Origin: a virus
Lineage: Duplodnaviria; Caudoviricetes
IMG/VR virus record: IMGVR_UViG_3300037067_009225
Coordinates: 1-64,000 of that record
Direction: 5' to 3' (one strand)
DNA length: 64,000 nucleotides
Under the pieces are notes generated by a model, which was not told the origin of the DNA, ran no database searches, and worked only from the letters and a program-made list of their open reading frames with translations. Within the stretch, counting starts at the first letter, position 1. Each line of letters starts with the position of its first letter. The position numbers and the translations under genes are program-made. Shown here one piece after another: positions 1-7,042 of this stretch.

Positions 1-101
1 ATAACATCAATACCTTCAAACGGTTGTGGCATCTCATTATATATGTTTTCATTCAAATACTCTCGTATTGTGGTTGCAATAAATTTTCTCAAATCTTTCA
101 T
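1..101 (-). CDS. 5' part of a putative virion-internal protein, truncated by window edge (MKDLRKFIATTIREYLNENIYNEMPQPF...)
   Basis: ATG at 101 on minus strand, open to window start; leader ends in LNE; TATTTATATATA just upstream. Confidence 0.6.
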   Translation of the reverse strand, partial: MKDLRKFIATTIREYLNENIYNEMPQPFEGIDV

Positions 102-200
102 TTGTTTTTCTTTATATATAAATATTCAATTTTAAAATTTCCACCATACATTTTTAAAAGTTTTTGTTCAGTGTTTCAATCGAGCATTTGTGGTAATTTC

Positions 201-312
201 CCGTACTGGTTATAACAAGGTGTATAAGAAAGTTTGTCATAAAGTTCAGTTGTAATTTGAAAGTTTGTACAAGCAAACCTTCTCATACACCCAACCGTTA
301 TAGCCAATAGGG
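201..312. repeat. attC-like imperfect palindrome 1
   Basis: TGGTTATAAC (207-216) ... GTTATAGCCA (297-306); inner stem 220-236/274-290, 15/17 complementary. Confidence 0.8.
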
Positions 313-326
313 GTGAAGTGCTTCGA

Positions 327-1082
327 TTAATCATTTTCGTTAGAAAAATTAAAAAAAGACCCACCGCACTCTTTAATACGAGTTTCAGCTATTTCATTAT
401 ATTTTTCAGAATTATCAATTCCGATAAAATTTCTTTTCATCTCATAAGCTACTTTGGTTGTTGTTCCAGTTCCGTTGTATGGGTCTAAAACCAAATTTCC
501 TTCATTGGTAAATGCTTCAACACATCTTTTTACAAGTTCTTCTGGAAATGTAGCATTATGTCCGTAAATATTTTTGTTTGGAACAATTCGCCAAATACTT
601 AAATACTTTGCAGCTTCTTTATTCCAAGTAAATCCCTTTGCTTCTTTTCCAAGTATATAAATATCTTCATCAACCCTATAAAATCTAACAGGATTATACG
701 CTTGCATACCACATCTATCCCATGTAATTCTCTGTCTGTATTTTGCATTTGTCTTTAAAATCCATTCCAAAGGTGATTTTACTTCAAATTCAAATATTCT
801 ATCTTTGTGGTTGTAGCAAATTGTTCCAGTTGGTTTTAGAACTCTTACCATCTCATTTATTATTTCTATTTGCCTTGCTTCATAGGTTTCATCATCTTCT
901 TTGTCGGTGCAATTATCATAAGTTATATTGGTTCGTTCCCAAAAATCTTTCCTACTTGCTTGTGTTCTTCTGTTTCTCCAATTATTATAATTTGGTGAGG
1001 TAACAATCAAATCAATAGTGTTATCAGGGAATGTTTTAAGCAATTCCAAATTATCTCCTGTGTATATTTTATTTATTTCCAT
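327..1082 (-). CDS. DNA methyltransferase, N4-C/N6-A beta class
   Basis: DLIVTSPNY catalytic motif N-terminal; HNATFP; VLDPYNGTGTT SAM-binding motif C-terminal. Confidence 0.9.
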   Translation of the reverse strand: MEINKIYTGDNLELLKTFPDNTIDLIVTSPNYNNWRNRRTQASRKDFWERTNITYDNCTDKEDDETYEARQIEIINEMVRVLKPTGTICYNHKDRIFEFEVKSPLEWILKTNAKYRQRITWDRCGMQAYNPVRFYRVDEDIYILGKEAKGFTWNKEAAKYLSIWRIVPNKNIYGHNATFPEELVKRCVEAFTNEGNLVLDPYNGTGTTTKVAYEMKRNFIGIDNSEKYNEIAETRIKECGGSFFNFSNEND

Positions 1083-1140
1083 CCCTTCTCTTTTTTTAAT
1101 TTTTCTTTTAGTGCTTCGATTAAACGTTTGTGCTAAAAAT

Positions 1141-1250
1141 CCCTACTGGCTATAACAACGTGTATAAAACATAGCCAATTAAGGTTAGTGGTTTAATATT
1201 AAGTTTCGTGCGTGGCTACGTTTCATACACTCGACCGTTAGCAGTAATAC
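1141..1250. repeat. attC-like imperfect palindrome 2
   Basis: TGGCTATAAC (1147-1156) ... GTTAGCAGTA (1237-1246); inner stem 1160-1177/1213-1230, 16/18. Confidence 0.8.
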
Positions 1251-2047
1251 TACATTCCATCTCCGAATAGAGTTTTCTGCGTTAAATCTTTTTCTTTTCT
1301 TTTTTCTTCCACCCTTTTTAAAGCAATTTCATAATGGTCTTTTACTAATTCACTACCAATATAATCACATTCATTTTCAATACAACTTAATTGTGTAGTT
1401 CCTATTCCAGTAAAAGGTTCATAAATCAAACTTCCTTTTGGAAAGTAAATGTTTATCAGTTGATTTACTAAATCTTGTGAAAATGATGCTTTTAATTTAC
1501 ATTGGTATCCATCATTATTTCTCGCTTCAATGTAATTCACATAGTTTTTGTAAAACTTCTGCCCTGTTTTTTCATTTACCTTACTTACTTCCTTGTTGGT
1601 TTTGAATGTGTGTAAATATTCTTTCTTCACAAAAACATAAATCAATTCAGTAATCCTACTCAATTTAGTTGGTGATGTTTGAAATGGTATTGCATTTGGT
1701 TTCTTCCAGCAAATAATGTCTGCAATAGTTAAATCCGTTTCATTGTGGATTTTCGCAACTAATAATGTTGGTAGTATTGGATTTTCTTTTGCATAAGATA
1801 TGTTGTAACAAATCACACCAGTGTCTTTCATTACTCTTGAAAATTCTTTAAATTCATTAGTTCTTACTTCGAGATAATCATTTTCACTTAACCCATCTAA
1901 TTCAGAATATCCATTATTGTAATAACAATCACTTCTTTCTGTATTGATGTTGTATGGTGGTGATGTGATTATTCCATCAATAGATTTATCTTGAAGTCTT
2001 TTCAAGGTAATCTTACAATCTTCGTTATAAATTATATTTCGTTCCAT
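1250..2047 (-). CDS. DNA methyltransferase, N4-C/N6-A beta class
   Basis: IITSPPYN and IYEPFTGIGTT motifs. Confidence 0.9.
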   Translation of the reverse strand: MERNIIYNEDCKITLKRLQDKSIDGIITSPPYNINTERSDCYYNNGYSELDGLSENDYLEVRTNEFKEFSRVMKDTGVICYNISYAKENPILPTLLVAKIHNETDLTIADIICWKKPNAIPFQTSPTKLSRITELIYVFVKKEYLHTFKTNKEVSKVNEKTGQKFYKNYVNYIEARNNDGYQCKLKASFSQDLVNQLINIYFPKGSLIYEPFTGIGTTQLSCIENECDYIGSELVKDHYEIALKRVEEKRKEKDLTQKTLFGDGM

Positions 2048-2128
2048 TATTTATTTTTTTATTTCCTACCGCACAAAAAAGAAAAGAAAAAGGTTCAGTT
2101 TTTCATTGAGCATTTGTGGTTTAAATCC

Positions 2129-2238
2129 GTACTACTGCTAACATCGTGTATAAAACATAGCCAATTAAGGTATGTGGTTTATATCAAGTGTTGTGCGTGG
2201 CTACGTTTTATATTTGCAATACATTATAAACAATAAAA
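2129..2238. repeat. attC-like imperfect palindrome 3 (variant right arm)
   Basis: TACTGCTAAC (2133-2142); stem 2149-2163/2198-2212, 14/15; body closely resembles palindrome 2; right end reads ATTATAAACA instead of GTTA. Confidence 0.7.
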
Positions 2239-2403
2239 CTATGAATATTTTTCTGTGTCTTTAACAAAAACTATAATAATAGCGAAAATGAATGACACAA
2301 TTTCAATAATTGTAAATATTATAAGTAATATATTAAATTTATATATTAAACTTACAATAATAATAATCAATGATATAGTTATTAAAAATATTAAATATTT
2401 CAT
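2239..2403 (-). CDS. small two-TM membrane peptide (54 aa, MKYLIFL...)
   Basis: ATG at 2403 directly downstream of a canonical promoter; two hydrophobic stretches. Confidence 0.6.
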   Translation of the reverse strand: MKYLIFLITISLIIIIVSLIYKFNILLIIFTIIEIVSFIFAIIIVFVKDTEKYS

Positions 2404-2423
2404 AATTTTACTGTTTATAATAA

Positions 2424-2454
2424 CAAATATAAGCAATTATTTCAGAATTCCAAA
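2424..2454 (-). promoter_or_regulatory. Bacteroidota primary-sigma promoter facing into the cassette array
   Basis: minus strand TTTG-N19-TATATTTG. Confidence 0.8.
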
Positions 2455-2487
2455 TTTTTTATTCTCTTGTATTATATAAAAAAATTA

Positions 2488-2679
2488 CTAAATACCCAAT
2501 TCAACGAATTTTTGAAAAACTTCTCCGTTTTCAATATATTCGCAAGTGCAAAATATTGTGTTTTCATCTTTCTCTTTATATGATACCAAAGTAAACTCTT
2601 TAATTTCATTATAAAAACCAAATTTAAGTTTTCCATCTTCAACCATCTGTTTTAGTTTTTCAAAAATTAGTTTTTTCAT
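2488..2679 (-). CDS. hypothetical protein
   Basis: ORF directly downstream of repeated promoter unit. Confidence 0.6.
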   Translation of the reverse strand: MKKLIFEKLKQMVEDGKLKFGFYNEIKEFTLVSYKEKDENTIFCTCEYIENGEVFQKFVELGI

Positions 2680-2764
2680 AAGTTTTTATTTTATATGTTT
2701 ATAATAATAAATATAGAACAATTATTTCAGTATTCTAAATTTTTTGTTATGTTTTTTATTTAAT

Positions 2765-2974
2765 TTATACTATCTTAAATTTTTCCAAAAAATCAAAAAA
2801 TGTTGAAAAAGTTAAATGTTGATAATTCTTTTCATCTTCAACATAAATAAAACTATCAAGTTTAGCATAAGTAATAACATTATAAACTTTTCCAACTTCA
2901 TGTATTCCAGTTTTAATTAAACATTCAGCTTTAAACTCTCTTTTTGTTTTTTGGTAATAATCTTCTATTATCAT
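2765..2974 (-). CDS. hypothetical protein
   Basis: ORF in co-oriented cluster. Confidence 0.55.
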   Translation of the reverse strand: MIIEDYYQKTKREFKAECLIKTGIHEVGKVYNVITYAKLDSFIYVEDEKNYQHLTFSTFFDFLEKFKIV

Positions 2975-3442
2975 TTTTCTATTTTATTTTTAAGTTAATT
3001 ATTATTTTTCTATACCTATTTTAATAAAACCATTTATAATCTTTTGGTATTTCATTTTCAAAATATTCTGCATCTTCGTATATAGTTTTTAATTCATCTA
3101 CTCTTTTTTCTGCAACAGCCTTAGTTCCGCAGGTTCTTTCATACATATTACAACCCATGTTTTTATAAAAAATATAATAATGTGTCATTTTGTTTTTATT
3201 AAAATATTTTAAATATTAACGATAATATTTACATATAACACAAAGACCTTTATGTTTTCTACATGCTTCAACCCTTTTAATATTTGTTGATTTTAATTTA
3301 CATTCTTTAATATTATCCATAGATATATTTAATTGCTGTTTTGGTGTTTCAATTCCATTTTTTGATGTTTTCATATGTTTCATCTTATTTTATTATATTT
3401 ATTAAAAAATTAAATATACATCTCTAACCGTTATTAATAAAG

Positions 3443-3988
3443 TTAAAAAGAATCTTCGAACAATGTCCAGTGTTTTTCCGATTTAAGTAAATTATAAGGA
3501 AGATAATTACCATCATCATCTATTTCTTCTGATTCCCAAGCACCACCATTAACCGAAGTTTGATTCCAAGCTATAGCTAATAATTCTGGATCATTTTTAA
3601 GTTCTTCCTCAATTACATCAGCTTGTTCTTTTAATGATGTTTCACCTTCAAAATTTCTAAAAGCATTTAATAATTCTGGTAAATCTTCTTTTAAAACAAC
3701 AACATTATCAAAAGTTGATCTAAGGCAAATTTTATCTATTTTTGAAACGCCATCTTTCAAACTTAAATCCCAAACTTCTTTTATTGCTTCGCCTCTAAAA
3801 TCTGCACTTCTAAAATATTCTTTGTCCGTTTCTCCAAGCATTTTTGCAAAATCAGGAATATATTTAGGTAAGTATTTTTTATCTAAAATATTCCATATAG
3901 CCATAGCACCAAGCCAAGCATTTTTTATTTCAGAAAAACATACAACATCACCATCTTTTTTGAACTTGTAAATTTCTGTGTAGCTCAT
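3443..3988 (-). CDS. hypothetical phage protein
   Basis: 181 aa ORF, typical composition. Confidence 0.7.
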   Translation of the reverse strand: MSYTEIYKFKKDGDVVCFSEIKNAWLGAMAIWNILDKKYLPKYIPDFAKMLGETDKEYFRSADFRGEAIKEVWDLSLKDGVSKIDKICLRSTFDNVVVLKEDLPELLNAFRNFEGETSLKEQADVIEEELKNDPELLAIAWNQTSVNGGAWESEEIDDDGNYLPYNLLKSEKHWTLFEDSF

Positions 3989-3994
3989 TTTATT

Positions 3995-4456
3995 TTAAAT
4001 TAAAATTAATAATTTTATTTGTCTATTAAATCTTTTTATATATGGATTTATCGTATCTCTTAATAATAAAACATGTAAACGAAAATCATTATCATTATTT
4101 GTAATATTTTTTGGATCACCAATATATTTTTCAAATAATTTATACATCTTAACTGGTGTTATTTTATTTGTTCTATTATTTTCATTTATTTCTAATAAAT
4201 ATGATAAAATATTTACAACTTTATTTTTTTCAGCATCATTATCAGATTCGTATACACCCCACCTACTTGTATAATTAATTAATAACATTTCAACTTTTGT
4301 ACTTGTTGGTTGAATTGTATCTTTAACATCAACATTAATAAATTTATTGAATTTTTCAATTATATAATCATAATTGGATGCAAATACACTATTATCACAG
4401 CTTTTATTAAAAAGTAGTGTGAATTCTATAAGATTTTCTATTTGTTTTAATTCCAT
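3995..4456 (-). CDS. hypothetical protein with C-terminal RxxK tag (RQIKLLIL)
   Basis: ORF; tail motif. Confidence 0.65.
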   Translation of the reverse strand: MELKQIENLIEFTLLFNKSCDNSVFASNYDYIIEKFNKFINVDVKDTIQPTSTKVEMLLINYTSRWGVYESDNDAEKNKVVNILSYLLEINENNRTNKITPVKMYKLFEKYIGDPKNITNNDNDFRLHVLLLRDTINPYIKRFNRQIKLLILI

Positions 4457-4489
4457 AATTAAAATATTATGGTAAATATAATATTAATT

Positions 4490-4714
4490 TCACAAATAAT
4501 CAAGTTTTACGTAATCAGAATAATCAATAATTACTTCTACCATTTTACCTAAATAATTTAAATCTGAAAATTCTTCAAAATCAGTAAAATAATGCAAACT
4601 TTTAATTTTCTCTTTTAGAGTTATTTTATCATCACCTTGAATATTGTCATAATTTTTAAAGAAATTATAAAAATGATGTAAATCTTCATCTTGAACATAT
4701 ATTTTAATTTTCAT
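4490..4714 (-). CDS. hypothetical protein
   Basis: ORF in operon. Confidence 0.55.
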   Translation of the reverse strand: MKIKIYVQDEDLHHFYNFFKNYDNIQGDDKITLKEKIKSLHYFTDFEEFSDLNYLGKMVEVIIDYSDYVKLDYL

Positions 4715-4736
4715 ATTTACTATTTACTTTTTTTAT

Positions 4737-4997
4737 TTAAATGTGAGATAACGATTCTTTAATAATAGAATTAATTTCGTTTTTAACAAAAATCAATTTA
4801 TCATTATATTTAAATCTTAAATAAAATACTGGAAAAAATATTAATATTATAGACCACATTAAAAATGCTCTGATAAACCAAAAAGGCTTTAATATAAATC
4901 TACCAGTTTTATTAACACAAGACCAATCTTGAAAAATGTATTGATTATATACAAAAATTAAAAAGTTAATTAATGTTAGTTTAATTGAATTATTCAT
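4737..4997 (-). CDS. hypothetical membrane protein
   Basis: hydrophobic segment. Confidence 0.55.
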   Translation of the reverse strand: MNNSIKLTLINFLIFVYNQYIFQDWSCVNKTGRFILKPFWFIRAFLMWSIILIFFPVFYLRFKYNDKLIFVKNEINSIIKESLSHI

Positions 4998-5244
4998 TGT
5001 TAATTAAATTATTTTTTTCTACCAATTTTATATCAAATTCATCTCTTAATGTTTCATAAGCAGATAATACATATATCCTATTAAAATTATTAAGTTTACT
5101 TAATCTTTCTTTTATTTTAATTTTTTTATCTTTATTTAAATTTTCAAAGAAATCTGACAAATCTAAATATTCAAATTCAAACTTATTAATTTCATTAACA
5201 TAATCTAATGTATCAAAATATTTATCTAAATTAATTTTAAACAT
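4990..5244 (-). CDS. hypothetical protein
   Basis: ORF overlapping next gene. Confidence 0.55.
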   Translation of the reverse strand: MFKINLDKYFDTLDYVNEINKFEFEYLDLSDFFENLNKDKKIKIKERLSKLNNFNRIYVLSAYETLRDEFDIKLVEKNNLINNE

Positions 5245-5341
5245 ATATAATTTTTTATTTTTATATATTATTTATTATAGGTTCAAATTGATTTTTAATT
5301 TAGATTATTGGTGGGATGTGAAAATGTTTAAGTTTTAAAAA

Positions 5342-5614
5342 TTATTCTTCAAAACCTTCTAAGTCTTCTAATTTAACACCAATTGGTCTTAATCCATATG
5401 GTGTGGCATCTAAATAATAATCAAACGTATAACCTATTGCTTCTACTTCTTTCAATAAATTTTCTAATACATCATAAGTATCATTTTCATTCTCATATTT
5501 AGATAAAATATCTTTCAATTCTTGTGGTTGCATTTCTGGATGCTCAAATAAATCATAATATTTTTCACCATGATTTTCATTTATGAATTGATTGAAATTT
5601 TTAATATTACTCAT
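5342..5614 (-). CDS. putative head-internal protein (leader MSNIKNFNQFINE)
   Basis: CTS-like leader; TAATATATA at 5635-5643. Confidence 0.6.
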   Translation of the reverse strand: MSNIKNFNQFINENHGEKYYDLFEHPEMQPQELKDILSKYENENDTYDVLENLLKEVEAIGYTFDYYLDATPYGLRPIGVKLEDLEGFEE

Positions 5615-5644
5615 TTTTAATATATTTTTTTATTTATATATTAA

Positions 5645-7042
5645 TTATTTAATTTCATTATTTATAACCCACAAGTTTACACCTAAAGAAATAACAAAAG
5701 CTAATATATAAATGAATATTAAAGAACCAGTTGATGGTTCAACAGTCAAATAACTAAATTCTTTAAATGGTCTTCTTTTAAATTTATCAAGATTATTATT
5801 AAGATAATTATATAATTCATCCCATGTTTTTTCAGTAAGTATAGGATAGGCTGATTTAACTTTAATAATAGAGTCTGCAATAACTTGTTGTGGTAATGGT
5901 AAAATATTTGGAAGTTTTTCTCCAGCTTTACCTAATACTTTATTTTTTATTTCTTTAGTTGTTGGTACAACTGCAGGTATATTTCTTTTTATAACGCTAT
6001 CTTTATATGTATAAAGATTTAAAACTTCATTCTGAACAGCAGCAGTTAATTCAGAAGAATGTGACCATGAAAATGCTTTTGACCATGTAATTTCATCACC
6101 TTTTTTACCAATACATAAAACTAATTCATTTTTATTACCTTTCACCCAATAATTTTCTTGATAATCCGCAATAGACATGGGTTTATTTTCAAAGATAAGA
6201 ACCCATAAACGAAGTTGATTAGTTGGGCCAAATTTACCATTTAATCTTTTAAATTTTTCTTGTGTTTCTTTACTTACATTACTACCTAATATAGTAGGAA
6301 AATAAAAAATATCATCAGAATTGAAATATGCAGTATCCTTTCTCGATGGATATTTAAACAAACCAAGTGTATCAGCTTGTTTATCATCAACAATTTTGAT
6401 ATTAAAAATTGATAAATCACTTGCTTTAACTTTATTAATATATGTGTGTTTACTTACATAAGGTTTTCTTGTTTCATCACTACCATTCCAATCAGTTTGA
6501 TATACATATGATATATTACCAACTCGTTTATCTTCAAATTTAGTTCCACGACTACTTGTTGCGTAATCACTTGGTGTATGGTTTTTGTGTGTGTTAATAA
6601 TGGTTTTATTTGTTTTAAATAGTTTTATAATTTCATCATGTTGTTTTTCTGAAATTCTAAAAGATTCACCTATATTTGTTTCTGCAGACCAAGAAGGGCC
6701 AACGTCATCTTGGTGAGAACAATCATACCATTCAGTGCAATAATCAGTTACTGTATTACCATTAGAATCTGTATGTGAACCACATGGAACAGTTTTACTA
6801 CACATTTCACTATGCCAATAGTTATAAGGTTCTTCTTCATAAACAGAGGTAACACTTGATCCCCACCATTCATCAAAACTAACAGTAGTGTGGTCAATTA
6901 TAGCTTTAGAAATAACAATAGCAATAAGAACACTACCAATAGGAATAAAAAACTCCCACCATGAGAATTCTGATTTTCTAAAGAAATAAAAAACACCTGT
7001 TACTATTATTGGTATAATTAAAGCTAAATAAACTGTTGGCAT
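5645..7042 (-). CDS. membrane protein with large extracytoplasmic domain (possible partner of LemA-like protein)
   Basis: two N-terminal TM helices, Cys-rich segment, one C-terminal TM helix. Confidence 0.65.
   Translation of the reverse strand: MPTVYLALIIPIIVTGVFYFFRKSEFSWWEFFIPIGSVLIAIVISKAIIDHTTVSFDEWWGSSVTSVYEEEPYNYWHSEMCSKTVPCGSHTDSNGNTVTDYCTEWYDCSHQDDVGPSWSAETNIGESFRISEKQHDEIIKLFKTNKTIINTHKNHTPSDYATSSRGTKFEDKRVGNISYVYQTDWNGSDETRKPYVSKHTYINKVKASDLSIFNIKIVDDKQADTLGLFKYPSRKDTAYFNSDDIFYFPTILGSNVSKETQEKFKRLNGKFGPTNQLRLWVLIFENKPMSIADYQENYWVKGNKNELVLCIGKKGDEITWSKAFSWSHSSELTAAVQNEVLNLYTYKDSVIKRNIPAVVPTTKEIKNKVLGKAGEKLPNILPLPQQVIADSIIKVKSAYPILTEKTWDELYNYLNNNLDKFKRRPFKEFSYLTVEPSTGSLIFIYILAFVISLGVNLWVINNEIK

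Follow-up and report, generated by a model that had tools for sequence, protein, structure and literature searches.

Hairpins and cassettes at the end of a phage contig

What kind of element separates single phage genes by hairpins whose outer arms pair only loosely with each other, and closely with the arm on the far side of the neighbouring gene? This arrangement occupies positions 1-2454 of the viral record IMGVR_UViG_3300037067_009225, whose first 64,000 nucleotides form the stretch of DNA analysed here (the window). The record is linear, 113,906 bases long and estimated to be 16% complete, and this large contig is from a Bacteroidota phage. It has nothing 5ˊ of window position 1, where the array is cut by the contig end. 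A previous inspection of the letters alone (the sequence-only reading) had proposed an integron-like array of single-gene cassettes, two of which carry DNA methyltransferases. That proposal is supported by the anatomy of the sites and, among relatives, by cassette variation, breakpoints and linkage to a recombinase, from which we infer excision itself. We consider it very likely that positions 1-2454 are the cut end of a phage-borne array of integron-type cassettes, presumably moved by Xer-like recombination.

The hairpins were examined with a covariance model, R1, built from 27 sites. All coordinates without a contig name are window positions, and the sites are as follows.

201..312, minus strand: attC-like site 1 (R1 score 54 bits), in which a 12-nt arm with TAAC and, on the other side, GTTA with a second 12-nt arm enclose an imperfect inner hairpin of ~80 nt
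1141..1252, minus strand: attC-like site 2 (R1 score 59 bits)
2127..2238, minus strand: attC-like site 3, partly decayed (R1 score 37 bits, and alignment)
2406..2454, minus strand: remnant half-site with a promoter-like motif, in which the arm 2406-2421 ends in TAAT

The three sites are homologous and strand-specific, at about 112 nt each. On the whole 113.9-kb record, R1 finds these three sites and no others, all on the minus strand. A whole-record scan for simple TAAC-hairpin-GTTA arrangements returns the known sites and weak chance matches, and nothing else. The earlier description of hairpins with TAAC...GTTA ends between the genes therefore stands as far as three homologous sites are concerned, with the correction that the core of site 3 is mutated (ATTA for GTTA at 2223-2226). 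The inner stem of this site is also shortened on one side. Site 1 has a predicted fold of -44.8 kcal/mol (z = -7.3), and its 3ˊ arm is also present in many jumbo-phage contigs.

The arms reveal how sites and genes belong together. Arm 297-312 pairs with 1141-1156 across methyltransferase 1 at 15 of 16 positions, arm 1237-1250 with 2129-2142 across methyltransferase 2 at 13 of 14, and arm 2223-2238 with 2406-2421 across a small open reading frame (ORF) at 15 of 16. In all three pairs the sole mismatch is at position 11, where a T.G wobble is present on the gene strand and C.A on the other strand. When recomputed, these pairings agreed exactly with those first reported. The arms within one site pair far less (13/16, 7/16 and 7/16 for sites 1, 2 and 3), and site 2 is chimeric in that each of its arms belongs to a different neighbouring cassette. 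The fourth boundary, 2406-2421, does pair as had been claimed, but it is a half-site remnant that overlaps a promoter-like motif. The place homologous to 2406-2454 in megaphage LR756500 (L002:4009-4156) is a complete site. The 3ˊ half of the site in this 462-kb uncultured phage includes a promoter-like motif, TTTG...TAnnTTTG, and the window keeps that half alone.

The same pattern is found well beyond the window. Among 82 neighbouring site pairs from 10 arrays, compared over 12-nt arms, those arms that face each other across a gene have a mean pairing of 10.3/12 (82 junctions), compared with 6.3/12 for the two arms of one site and 6.5/12 for arms of non-neighbouring sites. Cross-gene pairing is not a product of chance. 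The fixed T.G position is kept in 75 of the 82 junctions, nearly all of 92 sites have a TAAC/GTTA (or CAAC/GTTG) core, and the inner stems of the sites covary. Simulated circle junctions, in which the end arm is joined to the start site, fold better in 43 of 45 cases with DNA parameters, with a mean of -23.4 kcal/mol for the reconstituted junction versus -16.5 kcal/mol for the array form. The window sites match R1 in uniform orientation and have both the fixed T.G and the cross-gene arm pairing, which places them in what we call the Bacteroidota hairpin-cassette family.

Cassette variation in Flavobacterium phages

If the genes are excisable units, as the sequence-only reading held, their order should vary among relatives. 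In near-identical phages both the content and the order of cassettes do vary, with breaks at the GTTA core, and the relatives' arrays appear, from these comparisons, to be composed of mobile units. The entire leftward early operon of the Baltic Flavobacterium phages (Muminvirus and allies) is made of such cassettes, with 10-15 sites and 1-5 methyltransferases per genome examined. The flanking DNA in these phages is 93-99% identical, yet the number and order of cassettes differ. Closely related isolates differ by single whole cassettes, and the position of one three-gene unit varies from phage to phage. Downstream of one inner hairpin, six different arms are found, and homology stops exactly between AAC and GTTA. 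The six junctions of the best-sampled hairpin break within the same 4 bp, and the flanking arms are unrelated.

The gp007 cassette of Flavobacterium phage mymlan6-1 and cassette 2 of the window are ~88% identical at their ends and differ in the interior. The protein encoded by methyltransferase 2 can be aligned with that of gp007 over the last 74 residues only, at 45% identity. These two cassettes have conserved ends and a replaced interior. At the nucleotide level, window 1233-1320 and 2060-2143 correspond to L009 (mymlan6-1) 2818-2905 and 3640-3722, where the arms, the leader and the last ~20 codons are alike.

The sites also bear on annotation. The annotated methyltransferase start of mymlan6-1 gp014 (L009 6130-6242) runs into a site arm and TAAC at ~6158-6173. 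Several tiny annotated 'hypothetical proteins' of the same phage that overlap sites (gp006, gp008, gp013 and gp015/016) are probably not genes. The paper describing the Flavobacterium phages ties their variable methyltransferases to plating efficiency and mentions neither repeats nor cassettes (PMC7077304).

Chromosomal arrays and their recombinase

Bacterial genomes were searched with R1 and with a strict DNA pattern. The pattern alone marks more than 120 stretches, of which nearly all belong to Bacteroidota, and within these stretches R1 finds same-strand arrays with a spacing of 0.5-1.3 kb. A covariance model scanned on this genome, on related phages and on Bacteroidota chromosomes, as had been suggested from the sequence, finds arrays in all three. 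Default-filter model searches over several sources missed window and L204 sites that score 54-59 bits, and absences there are not evidence.

In each of five Bacteroidota genomes examined, an array of tens to at least 146 sites adjoins a tyrosine recombinase, and in four of the five the recombinase gene is oriented towards the array. Two of these loci are listed here.

Flavobacterium enshiense: recombinase at C28:262468-263274, sites from 263945
Bacteroidota bacterium SSA2 chromosome (G005, CP058707): recombinase at 3,985,825-3,986,625, at least 146 sites at 3,486,421-3,982,509

The CP058707 sites are on one strand over ~0.5 Mb, and the run ends ~3.3 kb from the recombinase. If continuous, this would be an exceptionally large array.

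Judged by its sequence, the recombinase of this family is Xer-like and not a canonical IntI. The best solved relative of the F. enshiense enzyme (356 amino acids, L142:1240-2310) is the Vibrio integron integrase 2A3V (VchIntIA; E 7.6e-42), and the alignment skips residues 211-244 of 2A3V, which form the integron-specific insertion. The TIGR02249 integron-integrase model has a cut-off of 265 bits, whereas the chromosomal enzyme scores 211 bits and the phage enzymes score 152-158. Against the XerA/integron-integrase model, the F. enshiense enzyme scores 219.3 bits with a cut-off of 220. An IntI, recognized by its integron-specific additional domain and its place adjacent to the array, is found neither in the window record nor in the recombinase of the relatives. 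The IntI-specific insertion contacts extrahelical bases. Smyshlyaev et al. describe this insertion as 'not fully conserved' in the integron-like subgroup of tyrosine recombinases (YRs) (PMC8138268).

Jumbo phages and the missing end of the array

The sequence-only reading had predicted that an arm closing the first cassette, GTTATAACCAATAC..., would be found beyond the start of the window. An exact 29-mer from window 17-45, sought in viral contigs as a means of extending the record leftward, has no match there. The predicted partner is nevertheless present in relatives. Twelve other viral contigs carry the same end of site 1, and in nine of these the complement of arm 201-216 sits 316-705 nt downstream. 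It reads ...GTATTGGTTATAAC on the gene strand and GTTATAACCAATAC... on the window plus strand, with A at position 11. The complete jumbo phage G007 (287,855 bp) carries a homologous cassette with the same gene start and a leader ~95% identical to that of the window, and this cassette is closed by the predicted complementary arm, followed by another site. The 16-mer of the predicted partner alone gives 52 viral matches, which is about the chance number, and it becomes informative once filtered for site context.

Site arms of the window recur in three complete related jumbo phages, which also encode a large protein ~40% identical to that of the window. Each of these phages has one tyrosine recombinase of 268-286 amino acids located 0.7-1 kb from the array end, and the G007 enzyme, encoded at L204:1471-2283, is 42% identical to the chromosomal array-adjacent enzyme (E 2e-64). 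A single-protein search of viral contigs with the chromosomal recombinase gave one locus, with no R1 matches beside it. By site polarity, the recombinase end of the jumbo-phage arrays is the end that is missing from the window. The gene, if this phage has one, would therefore be expected a few kb to the left of position 1.

Mirror orientation of the phage genes

Chromosomal and phage arrays differ in the strand of their genes. ORFs are opposite to the model strand in 35 of 36 intervals of chromosomal arrays, and on the model strand in 54 of 54 intervals of phage arrays, including those of the window. The phage genes are inverted relative to the site polarity of the chromosomal arrays, such that a phage cassette gene is preceded, not followed, by its hairpin (the chromosomal order is gene, then site). 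If the chromosomal order is taken as the canonical polarity, the putative phage crossover between AAC and GTTA on the plus strand is the canonical G/TT of R'. Phage cassette genes are read from the end distal to the recombinase, by a phage promoter.

One bacterial array has the phage-type orientation. Contig2 of Flavobacterium caseinilyticum (L058, 3560-7924) shows it in 7/7 intervals, with spacers of 198-738 nt, and this array may be a prophage or phage-derived.

Cassettes and cargo genes of the window

The breakpoints in relatives provide the basis for the cassette boundary rule, in which a cassette is taken to begin and end between G and TTA of the GTTA cores (plus strand). When this rule is applied, the features of the array are as follows.

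1..200, minus strand: truncated next cassette, with a conserved leader at ~102-200 and ORF 101..3, cut by the record start after its first 33 codons
298..1237, minus strand: cassette 1, with predicted integron-type boundaries, comprising an arm, the methyltransferase gene, an arm and the inner hairpin of site 2
327..1082, minus strand: DNA methyltransferase 1, 251 amino acids, N6_N4_Mtase (PF01555, E 5.8e-38; phrog_67, DNA methyltransferase)
342..359, no strand assigned: inner inverted repeat of cassette 1, matching 1089..1106 at 18/18, from the last codons to the 5ˊ leader of methyltransferase 1
1238..2223, minus strand: cassette 2, by the same boundary rule, with arms pairing 13/14 and a mutated core at the far boundary
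1250..2047, minus strand: DNA methyltransferase 2, 265 amino acids, N6_N4_Mtase (PF01555, E 3e-28)
1285..1305, no strand assigned: inner inverted repeat of cassette 2, matching 2075..2095 in the 5ˊ leader of methyltransferase 2 at 20/21
2239..2403, minus strand: small ORF for a very hydrophobic, membrane-type peptide of 54 amino acids, with no known family

The reconstituted junction of cassette 1 folds at -24.6 kcal/mol, compared with -14.6 kcal/mol in the array form. The two methyltransferases are 27% identical, and these orphan enzymes most likely protect against host restriction. The homologue of ORF 101..3 is complete in jumbo phage G007 (L185:4169-4705) and is 178 amino acids long. Neither the truncated ORF nor this homologue matched a known family. 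The initial account of the cargo is borne out for the two PF01555 methyltransferases and the very hydrophobic 54-residue peptide, and its label of 'virion-type gene' finds no support.

All genes in 1-6000 are on the minus strand. They are transcribed in the order 54-residue hydrophobic ORF (2403..2239), methyltransferase 2 (2047..1250), methyltransferase 1 (1082..327) and the ORF that runs from 101 off the record start. Positions 1-6000 contain a single promoter-like motif of the Bacteroidota type (TTTG-N19-TAnnTTTG, minus strand, 2424-2454), located upstream of the small ORF and both methyltransferase cassettes. Elsewhere, window 2653-2763 is a second copy of the promoter-like intergenic region 2376-2479 (77% identical) and is located upstream of the next small gene.

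Second inner inverted repeats like those listed above (15-21 nt, A/T-rich) are found in 11 of 49 phage cassettes and in 0 of 24 chromosomal cassettes. The pair in cassette 2 is also kept in mymlan6-1. Inner repeats of the leader-to-last-codons kind are also seen in L185, L169 and L009 (mymlan6-1). An RNA-level role for the inner repeats is possible. Scans of the whole record for Rfam families, tRNA and tmRNA returned no match.

A model for the array and its alternatives

These observations suggest a model in which each site is a strand-specific imperfect DNA hairpin, the counterpart of attC with unusually long R boxes. A cassette would extend from the TTA of one GTTA core (plus strand) through the G of the next. 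Because the boundaries would fall inside the GTTA cores, the two arms that flank a gene would be halves of one stem. Either excision of a circle or single-strand folding could unite these arms and rebuild the full hairpin with its fixed T.G (C.A) irregularity. A Xer-like tyrosine recombinase related to integron integrases, presumably the array-adjacent enzyme, would recombine sites at the core, which would make cassettes excisable, insertable and reorderable through putative circular intermediates. The methyltransferases would be transcribed from the promoter at ~2424-2454, on the strand opposite to that of chromosomal cassette genes. We infer that such an array may still be active in this phage.

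Several observations weigh against an array of recombining integron-type cassettes. No PF00589 (tyrosine recombinase) gene was found in the whole 113.9-kb record, which extends to the full record the earlier remark that the window lacks an integrase; the record is only ~16% complete and starts inside the array, at window position 1, which truncates the array and leaves no recombinase in view. The mutated core of site 3 and the remnant state of site 4 indicate that part of the array may be fossil. Some homology breaks in relatives are on the TAAC side or inside an arm, and a single crossover point does not explain them. The recombinase lacks the IntI-specific insertion, and the mechanism may therefore differ from that of integrons. 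Attachment site attC1 of Polaribacter phage P12002L, which has TAAC/GTTA anatomy, was not recombined by IntI1 (PMC9892861). Finally, a search of complete genomes of Muminvirus (38-kb Flavobacterium phages) and of P12002L revealed no tyrosine recombinase, so these phages would need a host enzyme or another mechanism. Flavobacterium sp. LMO8, from the same phage-host collection, has a recombinase ~970 nt from a site, which makes supply by the host in trans plausible for phages that lack the gene.

The lack of a recombinase in complete Muminvirus and P12002L genomes, whose arrays are variable, is also what would be expected if the cassettes were shuffled without a dedicated enzyme, through homologous recombination or template switching at repeated hairpins, as proposed for the promoter-early stem-loops (PeSLs) of T4-type phages. 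The conserved inner stems that neighbouring sites have in common could supply the homology, and the breakpoints off the GTTA core would be accommodated. We nonetheless regard this explanation as unlikely. The six junctions of the best-sampled case break in the same 4 bp between unrelated flanking arms, and homology-driven exchange does not need the observed covariation of arms across genes, with its fixed irregular pair. Moreover, hosts of the genus Flavobacterium carry the recombinase beside their own sites.

A somewhat less probable alternative is that the hairpins act as RNA, as signals for processing, stabilising or terminating a polycistronic early transcript, with the cross-gene arms forming 5ˊ-3ˊ stems. 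The sites are inside a transcription unit, the fixed irregularity is compatible with G.U on the gene-sense strand of the phage, and both methyltransferase cassettes have the second leader-to-last-codons repeat, of 18-21 nt, that is confined to phage arrays in our sample. However, site orientation in the chromosomal arrays is antisense to the ORFs in nearly all intervals, so the conserved strand is not mRNA there. An RNA function would also leave unexplained the gain, loss and reordering of whole cassettes with breaks at a 4-bp core, as well as the constant linkage to a tyrosine recombinase, and the sites match no Rfam family. An RNA role could exist alongside DNA recombination.

It is very improbable that each gene and the arms on its two sides make up a small transposon with terminal inverted repeats for which the inner hairpins are preferred targets. 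This idea takes account of the 14-16-bp inverted repeats that flank the genes, and of the fact that, both in the window and in mymlan6-1, the same arms have different inner hairpins on either side. However, neither target-site duplications nor a transposase are present, and arm-bounded units at hairpin-less places flanked by duplications were not seen. Inner hairpins stay with one neighbouring arm far more often than with the other, and site orientation is uniform over arrays of at least 100 sites beside a tyrosine recombinase. Xer/dif-type duplex sites, IS200/IS605 or REP-type hairpins and invertons were rejected on the basis of uniform orientation, cross-gene arm covariation, the lack of an HUH transposase, and the finding that units have been gained and lost, and not inverted, between neighbouring phages.

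Comparison with known systems

Integrons are the textbook device for gene capture and shuffling, and the array described here resembles them in several respects. The sites are imperfect hairpins in which only AAC...GTT is conserved, as in attC sites; the units carry single genes and the sites have a uniform orientation along the array; the core half at a cassette start is complementary to that at the cassette end, with breaks at G/TT; and arrays are located beside a tyrosine recombinase whose best solved relative is VchIntIA. Unlike in integrons, the complementary R boxes reach ~16 bp with one fixed T.G / C.A position, and the sites, which range from 85 to 154 nt, have a conserved asymmetric bulge beside one core. 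The family recombinase also differs in having no IntI insertion and in scoring below the integron-integrase cut-off, and the phage cassette genes are on the opposite strand relative to site polarity.

Two other modular systems invite comparison. PeSL cassettes of T4-type phages are small accessory genes in hyperplastic regions, located between repeated stem-loops that mediate shuffling; PeSLs are thought to work through homology and carry promoters. In contrast, the family found in the window breaks at a 4-bp core, has arms that covary across genes and is linked to a dedicated recombinase family. The pdif modules of Acinetobacter plasmids are serial gene modules bounded by inverted sites, for which the XerC/XerD-type recombinase is possibly encoded elsewhere. 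Their sites are 28-bp duplex Xer sites in alternating orientation with no long intervening hairpin, whereas the window family has long hairpins that all share one orientation.

Among published studies, the closest is that of Qi et al. (2023, Front Microbiol) on clusters of attC sites lacking integron integrases (CALINs), which reports 17 phage CALINs of 2-4 sites in 10,705 phage genomes (PMC9892861). The window array, with three R1 sites in 2.1 kb of a record that lacks a tyrosine recombinase, corresponds to a CALIN, although its sites are defined by R1 instead of IntegronFinder and the contig end truncates it. Qi et al. describe attC clusters in virulent phages that carry orphan DNA methyltransferases, of which the P12002L CALIN has two, and IntI1 recombined P12002L attC2, at one end of the methyltransferase array, at G/TT (PMC9892861). 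Their account names no Flavobacterium phage, does not connect the clusters with chromosomal arrays of Bacteroidota or with a recombinase encoded by a phage, and does not mention long arms, the fixed wobble or mirrored gene orientation (PMC9892861). In our comparison, P12002L attC1 has the same TAAC/GTTA anatomy and the same pairing across the gene as the window sites, and the P12002L array matches the methyltransferase array of mymlan6-1.

In IntegronFinder 2.0 a single complete integron is reported in Bacteroidetes, in Salinibacter (PMC9024848). The site family described here contradicts the picture of integrons as rare in Bacteroidota, given that all five genomes checked carry arrays, and sites of this family also structure the variable early regions in cultured Flavobacterium phages as well as in jumbo phages. 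We found no description of this Bacteroidota system in the literature searched, an absence that is not proof. We think that Bacteroidota and their phages probably share a distinct and very widespread integron-like system that integron surveys have largely missed, with long attC-like hairpins, covarying R boxes of 16 bp and a Xer-like recombinase without the IntI insertion. Phages, including recombinase-encoding jumbo phages, would use a mirror-image version of this system as an exchangeable store of anti-restriction methyltransferases and small early genes.

If active, such a system would explain the swapping of methyltransferases among phages, genes that in the Baltic isolates correlate with plating efficiency by host (PMC7077304). 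It would also offer a direct route of gene flow between host cassette arrays and viruses, and a natural test of whether folded single-strand recombination needs the IntI insertion. Cultured phage-host pairs (Flavobacterium LMO strains and Muminvirus) make the system testable at the bench. The window array does not belong to the classical IntI integron family and is best called a phage-borne, mirror-oriented array of Bacteroidota-type attC-like cassettes with anti-restriction methyltransferases.

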